Position numbers and translations under genes: made by a program. The notes below the pieces were generated by a model. The model saw nothing but the letters and a program-made list of their open reading frames with translations, was not told the DNA's origin and ran no database searches. A stretch of 64,000 nt of DNA from Sphingopyxis sp. (GTDB lineage: Bacteria > Pseudomonadota > Alphaproteobacteria > Sphingomonadales > Sphingomonadaceae): positions 2,537 through 66,536 of the forward strand of contig NZ_DATMST010000063.1 in the NCBI RefSeq assembly GCF_035565275.1, in the 5' to 3' direction. Position 1 is the stretch's first letter, and each line of letters opens with the position of its first letter. This document shows positions 551 through 43,616 of this stretch, one piece after another.

Positions 551-1987
551 TTATACCTTCCCCTTGATCCCTGCCGCCGCTTCCAGCTCGACCAGCGCAT
601 CCTCCAGATAGTCGATCAGCCGCTGGACGTGCGGCACGCTGCGGCGGCAGGCGGTGATGCCGAAATCGATATTCTTGTTGTTGCTGACCTGCGTGATGTT
701 CATCGCCATGCCGTCGACCGGGATGCTCGCGGGATACATGCCGTCGAGCCGTGCGCCGTTCCAGTAGAGCTGCTCGCGCGGACCGGGGACGTTCGAGATG
801 GTGACGCTGTACGCCGGAAATTTGTCGGCGGTGCGTGTCAGTGCGGTCAGCATCTGCGGCATCTGGGTGATCGCGGTATAGATCTGGATCTGCTGCGCGG
901 TCATTTCGCGCAGCTGCGCCTTCGCGGCGTTCATCGACGCCTGGATCGTCGTCATGCGCGTCGCCGGATCGTCGATGTGCGTCGCGAGGTTCGCGGTCAC
1001 CGCCGCGACCGAATTGCCCGAATCGATATCGTCCTTGGCGCGAATCGACACCGGCGCCATGGCTTTGAGTGGCTTGTCGGGCAGCTCGTTCAGCGATTGC
1101 AGATATTTGCGCATCGCTCCCGAACACATCGCAAGCACCGCGTCGTTGATGGTCCCGTCGTACGCCTTGCCCATCGCGCGGACGCGTTCCAATGACCAGC
1201 TTTGCGCGACGAAGCGGCGTGCGCCGGTGATGTTGCGGTTGAAGCTGGTGCGCGGCAGTCCGCCCCACGGCGTCGCAAGGTCACCGCCTCCGAGCCCGAA
1301 CATCGCTGCTGCATATTGGTTGAGTGCCTTGGTCACCCCGACGCTGTTGCCCCATTGCTCCTTCAGGAAGCCGCCGATGGCCTTGAGGTCGGTGAGGCTG
1401 GGCGTCGGCGCCTTCTTCGGCGCCGGGAACTTGCGCTTGTAGGCTTCGTAGGCCTCGACGGACATCGGCGAATAGCTGCGCTTCTCTTTCGGATCGGCGC
1501 TCAGCATCGCATTGGTGAAATGCATCGAACTCGCGCCGTCCATCAGCGCGTGGTGGATCTTGAAATAGGTCGCGATCTGGCGGTCGGGCAGCCCTGAAAT
1601 CAGCGTGATTTCCCACATCGGCCGCGTGCGGTCGAGCAGCGTGCCGTGGAGGCGCGACACGAGTTCGAACATCTCGCGATACCGCCCCGGCTTGGGCAGC
1701 GCGGCACTTCGCACATGGTAATGCATGTCGATATCGCGGTCGGGTTCGAGCCTGATCGGGCCATACTGCCCGAGCGGGGTGAGTTTCAGCACTTCACTGA
1801 ACGGTCGCCGCAGCCCTTCGGACTGGCGCAACATCGCCAGCTGTTCATTGAGCCACTCGGTTTCGTCGACCTTGTCGGGCAGGGTATAGAGATTGACCCC
1901 GCCCACATGCATCGGCGTCTCGCGCGTTTCGGCGACGAGGAACATCGCGTCGGTCACCGGCATCAGCCGCATGGCAGCTCTCCCCAC
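551..1987 (-). CDS. Wax ester synthase/diacylglycerol acyltransferase (WS/DGAT); the real start may be the MRLMPVTD methionine
   Basis: ETPMHVGG, catalytic HHALMDG, TINDAVLA, ISNVPGP motifs. Confidence 0.93.
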   Translation of the reverse strand: MGRAAMRLMPVTDAMFLVAETRETPMHVGGVNLYTLPDKVDETEWLNEQLAMLRQSEGLRRPFSEVLKLTPLGQYGPIRLEPDRDIDMHYHVRSAALPKPGRYREMFELVSRLHGTLLDRTRPMWEITLISGLPDRQIATYFKIHHALMDGASSMHFTNAMLSADPKEKRSYSPMSVEAYEAYKRKFPAPKKAPTPSLTDLKAIGGFLKEQWGNSVGVTKALNQYAAAMFGLGGGDLATPWGGLPRTSFNRNITGARRFVAQSWSLERVRAMGKAYDGTINDAVLAMCSGAMRKYLQSLNELPDKPLKAMAPVSIRAKDDIDSGNSVAAVTANLATHIDDPATRMTTIQASMNAAKAQLREMTAQQIQIYTAITQMPQMLTALTRTADKFPAYSVTISNVPGPREQLYWNGARLDGMYPASIPVDGMAMNITQVSNNKNIDFGITACRRSVPHVQRLIDYLEDALVELEAAAGIKGKV

Positions 1988-37710: not shown

Positions 37711-38745
37711 ATGCGCGTCGACGCCTTCGATTTCGATCTGCCGAACGAACGTATCGCGCTGCGCCCAGCGCGGCCGCGCGATGCCGCGCGTATGCTGGTG
37801 GTCCACGGCGGGAACATCGCCGATGCCGGGGTGCGTGACCTGCCGACATGGTTGCGCGCGGGCGACTGCCTCGTCTTCAACGACACGCGCGTCATTCCCG
37901 CGCAACTCGAAGGCCGCCGGGGGGATGCGAAGATCGGCGCAACGCTGCACAAGCGGATCGACCTGCGCCGCTGGCAGGCGTTCGTGCGCAACGCAAAGCG
38001 GCTGCGCGTCGGCGAGACGGTCGATTTCGGCGCGGGGGTCGAGGCGCTCGCCGAGGAGCGGCTGGCCGACGGCAGCTTCATCCTTGCCTTCGGGGGCGAC
38101 GAGCCGGTCGAACTGCTGCTCGAGCGGGCGGGCACGATGCCGCTACCCCCCTATATCGCAGGCAAGCGCCCGACCGACGAAGATGATCGCAGTGACTATC
38201 AGACGATGTTCGCGCGCGAGGATGGCGCGGTCGCGGCGCCGACCGCGGCGCTGCACTTCACCCCCGAACTGCTCGGCGCGCTCGCCGCGGCGGGTGTCGC
38301 GACCGAGACGCTGACGTTGCACGTCGGCGCGGGCACCTTCCTGCCGGTGAAGGCCGATGACACCGACGACCATGTCATGCACGCCGAATGGGGGCGGATC
38401 GAGGCCGACACCGCCGCGCGCCTGAATGCGGTGCGCGCGGCGGGTGGGCGGGTGATCGCGGTTGGCACCACCAGCCTGCGCCTGCTCGAAAGCGCGGCGC
38501 AGGACGACAGCACGATCGCGCCCTTCGCGGGCGACACTGCGATCTTCATCACCCCGGGATACCGCTTCAAGGCGATCGACGGGCTGATGACCAATTTCCA
38601 TCTGCCACGCTCGACGCTCTTCATGCTCGTCAGCGCGTTGATGGGGCTGGAGACGATGCAGGCGGCTTACGCTCACGCCATCGAAAGCGAATATCGCTTC
38701 TACAGCTACGGCGACGCGAGCCTGTTGCTGCCGTCCGCGCGCTGA
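37711..38745 (+). CDS. queA: tRNA preQ1(34) SAM ribosyltransferase-isomerase
   Basis: [55 protein letters not shown]. Confidence 0.98.
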
Positions 38746-38919
38746 GCAAAGGGGCCGGCACGGGTCCGAACATCGCGGATGATCGCCCTATTTTTCGCGC
38801 AACGACGAAATAGGAACATATGGCGAACATTTTCGCTTTCCTACATTATTCCGGCACCATAGCCTCCCCGACATCCGAAGCGAAAAGGCGCCCTTCGGGC
38901 GCGAATCAGGGGAAAGCCG

Positions 38920-39144
38920 ATGAAGAAATTTCGTCTGCCGGTGCTGGTGCTGGCGTTGCTGGGGATGGGGCCGGCGGCGATGTCCGCCGAGACGCTTGCC
39001 TACAGCTATGATGCCAAAGGCCGGCTGGTGAAGGTCGTGCGCACCGGCAGCGTGAACAACACTGTCACCGTCGAATACGAGCATGACAAGGCCGACAATC
39101 GCACGCGATTGAAGACGACGAACTCGCCCAATCCGCCGCCGTAA
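38920..39144 (+). CDS. Small secreted single-YD-repeat protein (74 aa)
   Basis: Signal peptide MKKFRLPVLVLALLGMGPAAMSA, then YSYDAKGRL...VEYEHDKADNRT, i.e. two RHS-type YD motifs. Confidence 0.8.
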   Translation: MKKFRLPVLVLALLGMGPAAMSAETLAYSYDAKGRLVKVVRTGSVNNTVTVEYEHDKADNRTRLKTTNSPNPPP

Positions 39145-39196
39145 GGCGCGTCGTTCGACTCGATGAAATAGCCTTTCCAACAGAGGAATTTCCGAC

Positions 39197-42100
39197 ATGC
39201 AAACATCACGCAAACCGGGCGCCCGCCGCGCCCGTCGCTTTCTGTCGTCCGCCGCATGGCTGCCGTTCGCGGTGCTGGCACTGGGCCTGCCCTCGCCGGT
39301 TCGGGCGCAAGACGCACCCGAACCCTATCGCAACGATGACGTCTATGGCGTTGATCTGACCACTGGTAGTTTCAACGTGAAGCTTCTTGAAGGTAGGATC
39401 GGTCCTAGCGATGGCGGTGTAACGTTGGTTCGTTATTCGGGCCGTGGCGGCTATGAAAATAACTGGACCGGAGTACTTAATCGGACCAACGTGGACGGCC
39501 AAACGCGTATTAACATCAGTTTCGGAAATGTGTCTGCCAAGTTTACTCTTGGCTCCGGAGGAGTGTGGACTTCGGACAAATCTGATGGGGCGACCCTCAC
39601 CGAAACGGTCTATGATCAAACGTACAGGGCGGAATATCTTTATCGGGCAGCTGACGGAGCCGAAGTTGTCTTTAAAACGACGCCTTTCATCTCGAACATG
39701 TATCCGACTACCGGCACTGTCACATATAATTGCGCACGAGGCCCTGCGTCGCATTGCGCACTGCCCGTCTCGATGAAGCAAGCAGATGGACAGAAGTTCA
39801 TCCTGTCCTATGACACGAGCTATAGCTGTTTGCCTGGACCGGTGGGCTCGCAAAATTGCTCGGTCGGCGTTGCCCATGGCGCACAGGTTTCATCTTCTTC
39901 TGGTTATGCTGTCTCCTTCGGTACTTCCGGAGCCACTTTATTCCATCCCGATGAAAGAACCTGCGCGGGGTTTAGCTGCACCTTCCCGCCTGACACGCCT
40001 CGCGTGACATATGCTTATCCAACTACCAACGTCCTCGAGGTCACGACGACGAACGGCGAGATATGGCGCTTTACCAAAGGTACAAGCGGGACCGGAAACG
40101 GCCGTATCGTGGGTATCCGGAGTCCAGGCGCAACCAGCGATACGACGGCGATCGCCTATGACAGCAGCGGCCGGGTCACGTCCATCACCGAAGACGGCGT
40201 GACGAAGACCTATAGCTGGGGGACGTCGGGCGGAAATACGGTGGTCAATACGACCGAAGGCGGAACCGACACGGGTCAGGTGGTTTCGAATCCGGCCGTG
40301 GGCCAGCCCACGAACGTGACCAATGGCGCTGCGCAGACTATTACTTACCAATATGACACGTCGGGCCGTCGTACGCGGACGACGATGCCCGAGGGAAATT
40401 ACGTCCACACGACCTACGATGCGCGCGGCAATGTGACCGAGACGCGCGCGGTCGCGAAGCCGGGAAGCGGACCCGCTGATATCGTCACTACGGCAAATTT
40501 CGACGCGGCTTGCACCAATCCGGTCAAGTGCAACAAGCCGAACTGGACGCAGGACGCGCTCGGTAACCGCACCAACTATACTTACGATCCGACGCACGGG
40601 CAGGTGACGAGGGTCCAATTGCCTTCTCCGACCGCCGATGCAGTTGGAGCCGAAACCGGCGTGCGGCCTGAAATCAACTATGGGTACACCGGCATATCGG
40701 TCGCGAGCGGCACCGTGCATAAGCTCACGCAGATCACGACCTGTGCGACCGCGGCGACTTGCAGCGGTACGGCGAACGAGACGAAGGTGACGATCGGTTA
40801 CAATGATCGATTGCTGCCAACGACCGTTACAACGGCTGCGGGCGATGGCTCGATCAGTTCGACCACCACCTATACCTATGACTGGCTGGGCAATGTCACC
40901 AGCGTTGACGGTCCGCTCGCCGGAACTGACGACACGACCTATTATTTTGGCTCGGCCGACTTACCAGCGGGCATCATCTATCCCGATCCCGACGGTGCTG
41001 GCCCGCGTCCGCGACGGGCGGAGCGGCGAAATTATGTGAATTGGACGACGCTCGAGTCGATCTCAATCGGCACAGTTACGGGTACAGCCCTGACCGACTT
41101 GACCGGCATGACCGCGCAGCAGACGATCAGCTACACCTACGACAGCAACAAGAATATCGTCAAGGACGTGACCTCAACCCCGTCGGGAACGGTGAGCGTC
41201 GTCCAGCACAGTTATGACGCCAAGAAACGGCGGACATGCACCGCGCTGCGCATGAACCCCGCGACGTGGAGCGCACTGCCCGCCAGCGCGTGCACCGCGG
41301 CGACGGCGTCGGCGACCTATGGCCCCGACCGCATCACGCGCACCAGCTATGACGCCAACGATCGCGCGACCAAGGTCGAAACCGCGGTTGGCACGGCCGC
41401 CGCCGCCGACGAACTGCGCGCAGCTTATACCGCGAACGGGCAGATCGACCATGTCATCGACGCCGAAAGCAACCGGACGAGCTATATCTACGACGGGTTC
41501 GACCGGCTGTCGCAGACGCGCTATCCCTCGGCCACCAAGGGTGCGAACAGCAGCAACGCGAGCGATTATGAGGGGCTGAGCTATGACGCGCGGAGCAGCG
41601 TGACGCAGCGCCGCCTGCGCGACAACACGGCGGTCGGATACAGCTACGACGATCTTGGCCGGCTGACCGGCAAGGACCTGCCGGGCAGCGAGCCCGATGC
41701 GACCTATGGTTATGACCTGCTGGGCCGGCCGGCGACTGCGGTGCAGGATGGCCAGACACTCTCCTTCGTCCATGACGCCTTGGGGCGGAAAACCGGCGAG
41801 AGCATTCCCTATCTGGGTGCGACGGGTTACGCCTATGATGCGGCCGGGCGGCGGACCAGCATGAGCTATCCGGGCGGCGTGCTGACGGTCAATTACGACC
41901 ATGATGTCACGGGCAATGTCACCGCGATCCGCGAAAACGGCGCGCCATCCGGCGCGGGCGTGCTCGCGACCTATGCGTTCGACGATCTGGGACGGCGTAT
42001 GAGCGTGACGTTCGGCAACGGCAGCACGCAAAATTTCACCTATGATCCCGCGTCGCGGCTGGAGACGTTGACCAATAATCTGGGTGGGGCGGTGACGACG

Positions 42101-43423
42101 CACGACCTGACGCAGACATTCGCCTATAATCCGGCGAGCCAGATCGCCAGCGTCATGCACAGCAACGACGCCTATGCGTGGCAAGGCCATTATAACGTCG
42201 ATCGCGCCTATGTCGCCGACGGGCTCAACCGCATCATGAGCGCGGCTGCCACGAGCATCGGCTATGACGCGCGCGGCAATCTGTCGATGTCGGGCAGCGA
42301 CAGCTACGGTTATGACAGCGAAAACCGGATGACGGGCGCGCCCGGCGGCACGACGCTGCACTATGATCCCGCGGCCCGGTTGAAGCGGATATATTCGGCC
42401 GCGGGGGGAACGACCTGGTTCGGCTATGACGGTGTCGACCGGACCATCGAACTGGATGTCGTCGGCACGGTGCTGCGCCGCAATGTCCACGGCCCCGGCA
42501 TCGACAATCCGATCGTCTGGTACGAGGGCGTGGGCCTCGGCGACCGACGCTTCCTGATGGCCGACGAACGCGGCAGCGTGGTGAGCGTCACCGACAGCGC
42601 CGGCGCGACGGTGGGGCTGAACAGCCATGACGAATATGGCAATCCGGCGCCGGGCAATGTCGGGCGGTTCGGCTATACCGGGCAGACGTGGCTGCCCGAG
42701 CTGGGGATGTGGTATTACAAGGCGCGGATCTATTCGCCGGTGCTCGGGCGGTTCATGCAGACTGATCCGATTGGATATGGCGACGGGATGAACTGGTATA
42801 ACTATGTCGGTGGGGATCCGGTGAATTTTGTGGATCCGTTGGGTCTAAGCTGTGATAATCCCGGAAATGGGGATTATTGTGACCCGTACAATCCGGGTGA
42901 CGATGGTCCAGAAATAAGCGTGATCGCCAACTGCAAGAAGGGTTGGACCTGCTCTGGAAAAGTAATTTGGTACCATATGGAACCTATATCTTTTGATCTG
43001 AGATATATAAATTACTCTTGCAATGCGGGCCGTCTTGTTTGTGAGCGAGAAAAGCCGAAGTATTGTTCGTCAACCACTTATCAGGTTGGAGATCTCATAG
43101 ATGACGTAGGTGGTGCCATTCAAGGAGCGGGGGCTGCTACCGTCGTGGCTGGAGGTGTGATCGGCGTCGCGACGGCATTTACTGGCGTTGGGGTCGGCGC
43201 TGGTGGTGGAGTGGCGGGAGTCGGCGGGACGATCTACACAGGCGGGACCGCCGTATCTGCGATCGGTAATGCAGTTAAATATGCAGGCGGTCAAAGTGGA
43301 GAGTTAACAGCCGCAAAAATGATAAGCCTTCCGATCGTTTATAAACTGAATGCCGTGCCGGGAATCATATCGGATAAAGTTCTATCGGAAACCATAGATG
43401 GGGCTTTGAGTGACCCTTGTTAG
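39197..43423 (+). CDS. RHS/YD-repeat polymorphic toxin-like protein with an N-terminal signal peptide
   Basis: Many YxYD.xGR repeats; RHS core YKARIYSPVLGRFMQTDPIG and DPVNFVDPLGL; variable 191-aa C-terminus; no PAAR/VgrG motif seen. Confidence 0.93.
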   Translation: MQTSRKPGARRARRFLSSAAWLPFAVLALGLPSPVRAQDAPEPYRNDDVYGVDLTTGSFNVKLLEGRIGPSDGGVTLVRYSGRGGYENNWTGVLNRTNVDGQTRINISFGNVSAKFTLGSGGVWTSDKSDGATLTETVYDQTYRAEYLYRAADGAEVVFKTTPFISNMYPTTGTVTYNCARGPASHCALPVSMKQADGQKFILSYDTSYSCLPGPVGSQNCSVGVAHGAQVSSSSGYAVSFGTSGATLFHPDERTCAGFSCTFPPDTPRVTYAYPTTNVLEVTTTNGEIWRFTKGTSGTGNGRIVGIRSPGATSDTTAIAYDSSGRVTSITEDGVTKTYSWGTSGGNTVVNTTEGGTDTGQVVSNPAVGQPTNVTNGAAQTITYQYDTSGRRTRTTMPEGNYVHTTYDARGNVTETRAVAKPGSGPADIVTTANFDAACTNPVKCNKPNWTQDALGNRTNYTYDPTHGQVTRVQLPSPTADAVGAETGVRPEINYGYTGISVASGTVHKLTQITTCATAATCSGTANETKVTIGYNDRLLPTTVTTAAGDGSISSTTTYTYDWLGNVTSVDGPLAGTDDTTYYFGSADLPAGIIYPDPDGAGPRPRRAERRNYVNWTTLESISIGTVTGTALTDLTGMTAQQTISYTYDSNKNIVKDVTSTPSGTVSVVQHSYDAKKRRTCTALRMNPATWSALPASACTAATASATYGPDRITRTSYDANDRATKVETAVGTAAAADELRAAYTANGQIDHVIDAESNRTSYIYDGFDRLSQTRYPSATKGANSSNASDYEGLSYDARSSVTQRRLRDNTAVGYSYDDLGRLTGKDLPGSEPDATYGYDLLGRPATAVQDGQTLSFVHDALGRKTGESIPYLGATGYAYDAAGRRTSMSYPGGVLTVNYDHDVTGNVTAIRENGAPSGAGVLATYAFDDLGRRMSVTFGNGSTQNFTYDPASRLETLTNNLGGAVTTHDLTQTFAYNPASQIASVMHSNDAYAWQGHYNVDRAYVADGLNRIMSAAATSIGYDARGNLSMSGSDSYGYDSENRMTGAPGGTTLHYDPAARLKRIYSAAGGTTWFGYDGVDRTIELDVVGTVLRRNVHGPGIDNPIVWYEGVGLGDRRFLMADERGSVVSVTDSAGATVGLNSHDEYGNPAPGNVGRFGYTGQTWLPELGMWYYKARIYSPVLGRFMQTDPIGYGDGMNWYNYVGGDPVNFVDPLGLSCDNPGNGDYCDPYNPGDDGPEISVIANCKKGWTCSGKVIWYHMEPISFDLRYINYSCNAGRLVCEREKPKYCSSTTYQVGDLIDDVGGAIQGAGAATVVAGGVIGVATAFTGVGVGAGGGVAGVGGTIYTGGTAVSAIGNAVKYAGGQSGELTAAKMISLPIVYKLNAVPGIISDKVLSETIDGALSDPC

Positions 43424-43433
43424 GAGCGGAAAT

Positions 43434-43616
43434 TTGAATAATATTATTAAAAAATATATAATGTACGCTAGTATATCTTCAATTTTATTTATATTAAGTA
43501 TATCTCATTTTTTTCGTTCAGATAAAAGTGCAGAAATTGTTTCGGTTTTTTCATCTATGATTATGTTTTTAATTATTCTATTATGCATTAAATACATAGT
43601 TAAGAAATTTCCGTAA
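43434..43616 (+). CDS. Candidate immunity protein, 60 aa with two TM helices
   Basis: AGGAG RBS then TTG 10 bp after the RHS stop; extremely AT-rich; MNNIIKKYIMYASISSILFILSISHFF...VFSSMIMFLIILLCIKYIVKKFP. Confidence 0.7.
   Translation: MNNIIKKYIMYASISSILFILSISHFFRSDKSAEIVSVFSSMIMFLIILLCIKYIVKKFP

Follow-up and report, generated by a model that had tools for sequence, protein, structure and literature searches.

In Gram-negative bacteria, RHS toxins are known almost exclusively as cargo of the T6SS, loaded in the cytoplasm. In the pertussis toxin/Ptl system, Sec exports each subunit separately; assembly takes place in the periplasm, and a VirB-like system encoded next to the toxin handles release. 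The TcB and TcC proteins of Tc (ABC) toxins are not known to carry signal peptides; they assemble in the cytoplasm, and the β-propeller of TcB docks on TcA. Together they form two-chain RHS cocoons, represented by YenB-YenC2 (PDB 4igl) and TcdB2-TccC3 (PDB 4o9x), in which adjacent genes each supply a chain of the shell and a β-sheet runs across the chains (PMC4267844). At the hit locus of Bdellovibrio bacteriovorus, the Sec-exported protein Bd0108 (101 aa) is encoded beside Bd0109, a Sec-exported RHS-repeat protein of 550 aa without a protease core or toxin (PMC3818213, PMC4267844). The two proteins, believed to act in the periplasm, bind weakly in vitro (Kd 45 µM) and regulate pili; Bd0108 is intrinsically disordered and matches no family (PMC3818213, PMC4267844). 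The Sec-dependent RHS/WapA toxins of Gram-positive bacteria are independent of the T6SS; each starts with a signal peptide, and its immunity gene lies downstream (PMC12704120, PMC4436062). They are single polypeptides of monoderms, with no upstream one-repeat partner described. Full-text literature searches turned up nothing specific on the gene pair described below in sphingomonads, or on T4SS-linked or Sec-dependent RHS proteins in alphaproteobacteria.

The pair lies in a 64,000-nucleotide stretch of Sphingopyxis sp. DNA (the window) and consists of a short YD-repeat gene, here called the mini, and the RHS toxin gene that follows it. As far as genes can be read, this is a polymorphic-toxin system of the RHS type whose accessory subunit, modular, made of one repeat and secreted on its own, has not been described before. 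By analogy, its nearest working counterparts are the two-chain BC cocoons of Tc toxins and the Bd0108/Bd0109 pair. Loci of the order mini-RhsN-RhsC (see below) appear to follow the same multi-chain logic as the Tc toxins, with adjacency and splitting read here from the genes. However, TcB and TcC are large half-shells, whereas one of the pieces here is a single 44-aa repeat unit, and mini, RhsN and RhsC each have a Sec signal. We found no β-propeller match and no TcA-like neighbour at the mini-RHS loci, and the RHS fold is closest to T6SS-type Rhs cores. Like Bd0108, the mini is a small Sec-exported protein beside a Sec-exported RHS-repeat protein; set against the description of Bd0108, it differs in that it is itself a YD repeat, unrelated to Bd0108 and confidently predicted to be folded, and in that its partner is a full RHS with a toxin. 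The RHS protein of the window resembles the WapA-type toxins in being a signal-peptide toxin with a downstream candidate immunity ORF. Its host, in contrast, is a diderm, so that RHS export would also need an outer-membrane step.

A first-pass annotation of the window, made from the sequence alone, had likened the mini to the Eag adaptors of T6SS RHS proteins. The likeness is a loose one. Eag genes are also small accessory genes directly upstream of rhs, and what Eag proteins recognise is the N-terminal region of the effector, not its toxin. However, they are proteins of the cytoplasm that differ in fold and bind the transmembrane helices of prePAAR, whereas the mini is predicted to be periplasmic and the RHS protein here has no PAAR or prePAAR region. 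There are no PAAR, VgrG or T6SS genes at the mini-RHS loci. An identity as an Eag (DUF1795) chaperone was rejected, as the mini has no such match in Pfam or NCBIfam and both proteins of the pair carry signal peptides.

The mini and its surroundings in the window

The same annotation had described a 74-aa signal-peptide ORF with a YD-repeat mature part, 52 bp before an RHS gene on the same strand, and we confirmed both the coordinates and the content (Table 1). The N-terminus is that of a typical Sec signal, with a basic n-region, a hydrophobic core and an A-x-A-type site before (A/S/T)ET, a junction kept across 74 mini relatives. Signal peptides of the mini, the RHS protein and their relatives were assigned by eye and from conservation. 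The 51-aa mature part holds YSYDAKGRL ... YEHDKADNRT and matches the Pfam family RHS_repeat (PF05593) with 26.8 bits (cut-off 22; E 6.8e-6) and NCBIfam TIGR01643 with 18.0 bits (cut-off 15.8). The two YD motifs counted earlier are both present, although together they make up one canonical YD repeat unit. A profile built from 49 members of the mini family matches the YD repeats of solved Rhs and teneurin structures. Profile matches and predicted fold place the mini in the YD-repeat superfamily, yet not among RHS core proteins. Being one repeat unit without core or toxin, it was rejected as a cocoon-forming RHS core protein; the tandem repeats of a closed cocoon, the Rhs-associated core (aspartyl protease, DPxGL) and the C-terminal toxin that mark such proteins reside in the neighbouring protein, P0002.

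Table 1 Coordinates of the features discussed, in the window unless a locus handle (L) is given.
Feature	Location	Strand	Remarks
Mini-YD gene, 74 aa (P0001), MKKFRLPVLVLALLGMGPAAMSAETLAYSYDAKGRLVKVVRTGSVNNTVTVEYEHDKADNRTRLKTTNSPNPPP	38920..39144	+	ATG 38920, TAA 39142-39144
Ribosome-binding site of the mini gene, GGGGA	38909..38913	+	Direct reading; 6 nt to ATG 38920
Signal peptide of the mini, aa 1-23	38920..38988	+	Predicted cleavage at about AMS/A↓ET, from residue pattern and conserved junction
Mature YD module, aa 24-67	38989..39120	+	Four-strand β-meander predicted by AF2
Pro-rich tail of the mini, NSPNPPP, aa 68-74	39121..39141	+	In fused relatives, the linker to passenger domains
RHS toxin, 1408 aa (P0002)	39197..43423	+	ATG 39197; spacer from the mini exactly 52 bp
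Ribosome-binding site of the RHS gene, AGAGGA	39182..39187	+	Direct reading of the sequence
Cysteine pairs of P0002	aa 439-445, 516-522, 681-699	+	Within 39197-43423
GC-rich hairpin, perfect 6-bp stem, GCGCCCTTCGGGCGC (GCGCCC TTC GGGCGC)	38888..38902		Between queA and the mini
Small hydrophobic AT-rich ORF, 68 aa from GTG	43410..43616	+	14-nt overlap with the end of the toxin tip
VirB-cassette loci	L011:1-7762, L050:10431-17792, L045:8768-17051, L047:6688-14674, L127:1-6804, L052:5785-13807		Outside the window
Split-RHS loci	L055:4279-8546, L065:7168-12075, L072:7195-11801, L078:7247-10310, L097:538-5195, L126:7622-12202		
Modules of the hydrophobic-tail sub-class	L143:3168-3470(-), L026:1432-1731(-), L031:1471-1791, L032:1453-1737, L034:1435-1725, L126:6378-6773		
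Arrays of orphan RHS C-terminal fragments	L050:1775-5382(-), L051:2493-6201(-), L046:3369-10000		Downstream of full-length RHS

Upstream of the mini, queA ends at 38745, and the hairpin between the two genes lies 18 nt ahead of the mini start codon. It has a terminator-like score on the minus strand only, where no gene needs one; a queA terminator and a regulatory hairpin are candidate roles. The mini and RHS genes are in different frames with a stop codon between them, and the spacer has no terminator-like site on the plus strand. The two genes are co-oriented and, as far as the sequence can tell, co-transcribed.

P0002 comprises a signal-peptide-like region (aa 1-37), a predicted all-β cocoon, an Rhs-associated core (aa 1146-1217) and a polymorphic tip (aa 1218-1408). 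Pfam and NCBIfam recognised in it only seven RHS_repeat stretches and the Rhs-associated core. The tip, encoded from position 42848 onward, is rich in cysteine and glycine and has no family match; a similar tip was seen in just one of 79 related loci (L069), and there the similarity is weak (26% identity). The 68-aa ORF that overlaps the end of the toxin gene matched no Pfam or NCBIfam family and is, from its position, a candidate immunity protein. Tip and ORF are likely to form a toxin-immunity pair.

Family, linkage and conservation

A word-indexed search found 698 clusters of mini homologues at 90% identity, almost all of 66-84 aa, with nearly all within 71-78 aa, and mostly from Sphingopyxis and its relatives, and an exhaustive search of 50%-identity representatives returned 114 homologues at E<=1e-10; numbers like these lie far outside what chance would give. 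The named records come mostly from Sphingomonadales, with a few from Caulobacterales (Brevundimonas, Maricaulis, Caulobacteraceae). Among sampled genomes, 34 of 201 from the family of the window's host contained a mini, as did one of 400 further genomes from across the class. Most of the clusters are unnamed, and the few source names are hypothetical protein, YD/RHS repeat protein or unrelated outer-membrane names. Some public records of the mini family (P0010, P0058, P0090) are called "outer membrane lipoprotein SlyB" or "LptE/RlpB", names that look unsupported because the only profile matches of the mini are to the YD/RHS repeat.

Closer relatives were recovered with an alignment, giving 74 species-genome loci with DNA; the encoded minis have 66-84 aa, and one outlier of 113 aa was excluded from the alignment. 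All 74 follow one plan, a signal peptide and then (A/S/T)ETITYTYDAKGRLVKVxRTGTVNNxV..Y.HDKADNRT..V.TTG, usually followed by SPNPPP(P), and 13 columns are invariant (E24, T25, Y28, Y30, D31, G34, R35, G43, N46, Y53, D56, N60 and R61). Compared with close relatives, the mini has a dN/dS of 0.08-0.16 (dS 0.4-0.9), and the peptide is therefore under purifying selection. Together with the constant length and the signal peptide of its own, this upholds the earlier view of a stand-alone gene rather than a broken fragment. A remnant or pseudogene was rejected by the dN/dS values. More broadly, a short ORF directly upstream of a large gene might be a non-functional remnant of the 5′ end of the RHS gene, or a leader ORF that regulates RHS by its translation; such a reading is effectively excluded by the strong purifying selection, an architecture that is constant across genera and orders, the separate signal peptide, the confident predicted fold and the reuse of the module as a domain in larger proteins.

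In 63 of the 74 loci an RHS gene starts within 1 kb downstream on the same strand, with a median gap of 54 nt and 55 gaps of 110 nt or less. Five loci end at a contig edge too early to be judged. Among the remaining six, L097, L126 and L137 reflect gene-caller artefacts or a split RHS and L076 is ambiguous. Two or three minis are true exceptions: L131 and L124, the latter an orphan next to a VirB cluster, and also L138, whose RHS gene is divergent. Where exact homologues of the mini were looked up, the next gene always encoded an RHS protein of about 1400 aa, and the flanks varied (restriction genes, RepB, a VirB operon).

The reverse search agrees. With the N-terminal third of the RHS protein as query, 13 of the 201 family genomes matched, the window's own included, and 11 of these also have a mini match. 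As for the other two, a mini-Pro-linker fusion protein is encoded upstream in G027, and the G103 locus breaks off at a contig end. Every evaluable RHS gene of the P0002 N-terminal type in the 201 genomes is thus preceded by a module-bearing gene. Where a genome has several cassettes, modules and full-length RHS genes match in number (two in L064, three in G195). Arrays of orphan RHS C-terminal fragments occur downstream of full-length RHS genes in the related genomes L050, L051 and L046, and none of these fragments is preceded by a mini module. The dedicated RHS partner proposed in the first-pass annotation therefore stood up to the co-occurrence check in both directions, contig ends, gene calls and split RHS genes accounting for most of the loci that were not paired. 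Judged from gene order, the pairing is near-obligate and the mini very likely a dedicated partner of the RHS toxin. We found no natural mini-RHS fusion among representatives or loci; apparent long fusions (L082 and L119 at 406 aa, and others) were rejected as ORF calls extended upstream.

Conservation is graded between the parts of the cassette. Relative to the window copy, mature minis are 55-90% identical and RHS shells 35-73%; the N-terminal third of RHS is 21-54% identical or unalignable, and the toxin tips are unrelated save at one locus. Mean pairwise distances follow the same order (mini 0.30, shell 0.50, N-terminal third 0.72), and the module exceeds every part of the RHS protein in conservation. 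This would also fit a conserved partner other than RHS. In a mirror-tree comparison the mini correlated weakly with the shell (rho 0.23) and not with the N-terminal third (rho -0.06); the signal is too weak and too confounded by linkage to speak either way on contact. The mini was rejected as the immunity protein of the polymorphic toxin because it lies upstream and stays conserved while the toxin tips are unrelated.

Another possibility is that the tile acts as a periplasmic decoy or in self-protection, blocking the assembly or uptake of kin RHS proteins or holding the cell's own RHS inactive until release. The predicted periplasmic location and the likeness to the shell would suit such a role, and for the partly analogous Bd0108 a role in sequestering or regulating Bd0109, its RHS-repeat neighbour, has been proposed (PMC4267844). 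However, changes of the toxin tip are not accompanied by changes of the mini, the toxin gene has a candidate immunity ORF of its own behind it, and the adhesin fusions described below would go unexplained; we consider a decoy highly improbable.

Fused modules, split RHS genes and VirB neighbours

The unit of signal peptide, YD repeat and Pro-rich linker also heads proteins of 140-950 aa, in which the passenger domains behind it are Big_9/cadherin-like (Ig), Calx-beta (up to four copies), F5/8 type C (discoidin), RTX and bulb-lectin domains. Such fused genes take the place of the mini beside RHS genes in G026, G150, G169 and G027. The stand-alone mini is therefore the module and linker without a passenger. 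Modules of one sub-class, about 94-131 aa long, have a conserved hydrophobic tail at their end, (V/I)VVPLNG(F/Y)T(I/V)IP. In G066, one to three small secreted paralogues of about 115-125 aa lie between a module of this sub-class and the RHS gene, and in L030 and L034 the hydrophobic-tail module is followed by a secreted protein of 438-446 aa of no recognised type.

At six loci of different genera the RHS gene itself is split, in the order mini-RhsN-RhsC. As called, RhsN comprises about 620-720 aa; copies whose true start can be recognised begin with a signal peptide, and the end is conserved as ...ISETxPNAxLxxCP. Complete copies of RhsC span about 740-885 aa, and a clear signal peptide of their own leads directly into a YD hairpin (...AQ↓ASPSxxTSAxRYDAxxRVTG). 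RhsC and the mini share one design, the mature N-terminus being the first strand of the hairpin, which argues for separate export of the pieces and joining afterwards. The gene structures suggest that RHS proteins of this family can be, and probably are, assembled from several polypeptides after export.

Homologues of VirB2, 3, 4, 6, 8, 9, 10 and 11, in type IV secretion clusters of the conjugative type, directly adjoin many mini-RHS cassettes. Three or more VirB genes occur within 7 kb at 12 of the 74 species loci, and VirB-gene matches were present in 10 of 19 larger regions fetched from the family sample. The order virB3-4-6-8-9-10-11-(virB2-like)-mini-RHS recurs in L011, L050, L080, L127 and L052. 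Cassettes flank the VirB cluster on both sides in G026, G048 and G189, one of the two flanks in G189 having a fragmented RHS. The mini of L047 heads the virB operon, 15 nt ahead of virB2. Of the features in this section, the adhesin-type fusions, the split RHS genes and the VirB neighbours had all escaped the first-pass reading, whose proposal of a dedicated partner the genomic data support.

The mini might be a sorting or export tag, read by an envelope or export component such as an outer-membrane factor or the VirB-type machinery, that brings RHS or the fused passengers to the surface. This would account for a module that stands N-terminal to many types of secreted passenger and is conserved above RHS, as well as for the VirB clusters beside many cassettes and the L047 arrangement, and pertussis toxin/Ptl, assembled in the periplasm, offers a model. 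As in that system, a sizeable minority of cassettes sit at the ends of VirB operons; the differences are that there is no homology, that many mini-RHS genomes are without the VirB subtype and that most of the VirB clusters of this subtype that were examined are without a cassette. There is no VirB gene in the window, and in its genome the VirB4 homologues are just 30-32% identical and the linked VirB subtype is absent, as it is from seven of 15 other mini-RHS genomes, one of them a complete Sphingopyxis chromosome. Of eight VirB clusters of the linked subtype that occur apart from a cassette, seven show no mini in the 20 kb fetched. A TraA-like relaxase fragment beside one locus suggests conjugative elements that often carry the cassette as cargo, and no other transporter is conserved beside the pair in the homologue neighbourhoods examined. 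All of these observations speak against a sorting tag, which we think quite unlikely. A T4SS component, for example a substitute for VirB5 or VirB7, was rejected on the same counts of clusters without a mini and genomes without the subtype.

Predicted structures and proposed role

The AF2 model of the mini (74 sequences; mean pLDDT 80.8) has a signal helix at residues 5-14 and four antiparallel strands, 25-30, 36-42, 49-55 and 61-67, with pLDDT 81-92 over the module. In Foldseek searches the meander superposed on the shell walls of Rhs, Tse5 and teneurin proteins with a probability of 0.99 and an rmsd of 1.0-2.7 Å over 42-47 residues, although so short a model gives weak E-values. The mini is thus predicted to fold as a four-strand β-meander with the geometry of an RHS shell wall. 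A flat 44-residue sheet of four strands with scant hydrophobic core suggests the need for a partner surface.

Modelled alone (aa 38-1224, 42 sequences), the RHS protein forms an all-β cocoon (pLDDT 82.8, pTM 0.79), and the variable N-terminal third belongs to the β structure of this model. The best matches are T6SS Rhs cores of similar size, with E-values down to 1.5e-47 and TM-scores of 0.5-0.7. Since the cocoon looks complete in the model, the tile would more likely be an external or rim-bound addition than a missing segment of the wall. The first-pass annotation had proposed that the mini adds strands to, caps or chaperones the RHS cage. The supply of a missing part of the cage by the mini, a candidate we rejected, is not needed for a full cocoon model; binding at the rim or edge stays compatible with it. 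Three cysteine pairs of the shell (C-x5-C, C-x5-C and C-x17-C) are invariant or nearly so in 42 RHS homologues, which fits oxidative folding and disulfide formation outside the cytoplasm.

On balance we propose, at about even odds, that the mini is a Sec-exported single-YD tile that docks on the RHS protein as a dedicated partner, and that its fused forms tether binding domains. The mini would be exported separately by Sec, and after cleavage its first strand would begin at the new N-terminus. In the periplasm, contacts through a β-sheet or at an edge would dock the tile on a conserved part of the RHS cocoon, its surface or its rim, and this site would be neither the hypervariable N-terminal turns nor the toxin tip. 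The Pro-rich tail would face outward and, in relatives, continue into Calx-beta, cadherin/Ig-like, discoidin, lectin or RTX domains, so that the module would serve as a constant anchor by which optional binding domains are tethered to the toxin shell. In the window, where it stands alone, it would be the minimal, passenger-less version, acting as a cap or stabiliser. We infer the physical binding, its site and any effect on stability, targeting or export. In favour of docking we count the real gene, the two-way synteny, the single module per full-length RHS and its lack beside orphan fragments, the graded conservation, the reuse of the module, the split RHS genes, the predicted fold, the cysteine pairs and the known two-chain cocoons. 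Against it we count the complete RHS-alone cocoon, in which no missing strand is evident, the weak correlation of mini and shell distances, the few minis that are apart from or divergent to an RHS gene (L124, L131, L138 and L047), the lack of a natural mini-RHS fusion, and a mini that is better conserved than its supposed shell partner.

The chief rival is a periplasmic folding nucleator or steric chaperone that templates the first β-spiral turns while the unfolded RHS protein comes out of Sec, or shields an edge strand, and is then released without becoming a component of the mature particle. The RHS protein must fold without ATP outside the cytoplasm, which fits its signal peptide and conserved cysteine pairs; the mini gene comes first in the operon and its product is exported separately, its predicted fold is that of the building block of the shell, and high conservation of the tile suits a generic template. 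The Pro-linker fusions to adhesin-type domains beside RHS genes, however, are left unexplained, and no Sec-dependent RHS protein of Gram-positive bacteria is known to need a comparable helper. We regard nucleation as unlikely.

The docking proposal can be extended to periplasmic RHS particles put together from a tile, an N-half and a C-half, with swappable receptor-binding domains and, in many elements, hand-over to a VirB system. We consider this extension distinctly improbable; if true, it would amount to a T6SS-independent, modular route of RHS delivery in diderm bacteria, by release or dependent on contact.

The mini family is without a name or curated model, and a defined family combined with a synteny rule would improve annotation. 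The mini-RHS family contrasts with RHS toxins understood as T6SS cargo in its predicted Sec export, its conserved cysteine pairs and its obligate one-repeat partner. It raises the questions of how a 150-kDa β-cocoon folds and assembles in the periplasm, and how the RHS protein exits a diderm cell and reaches its target. If the tile is indeed an anchor for swappable binding domains, the family would provide a compact natural means by which passengers are attached to RHS shells, and targeting would be a third polymorphic axis beside the variation of toxin and immunity.
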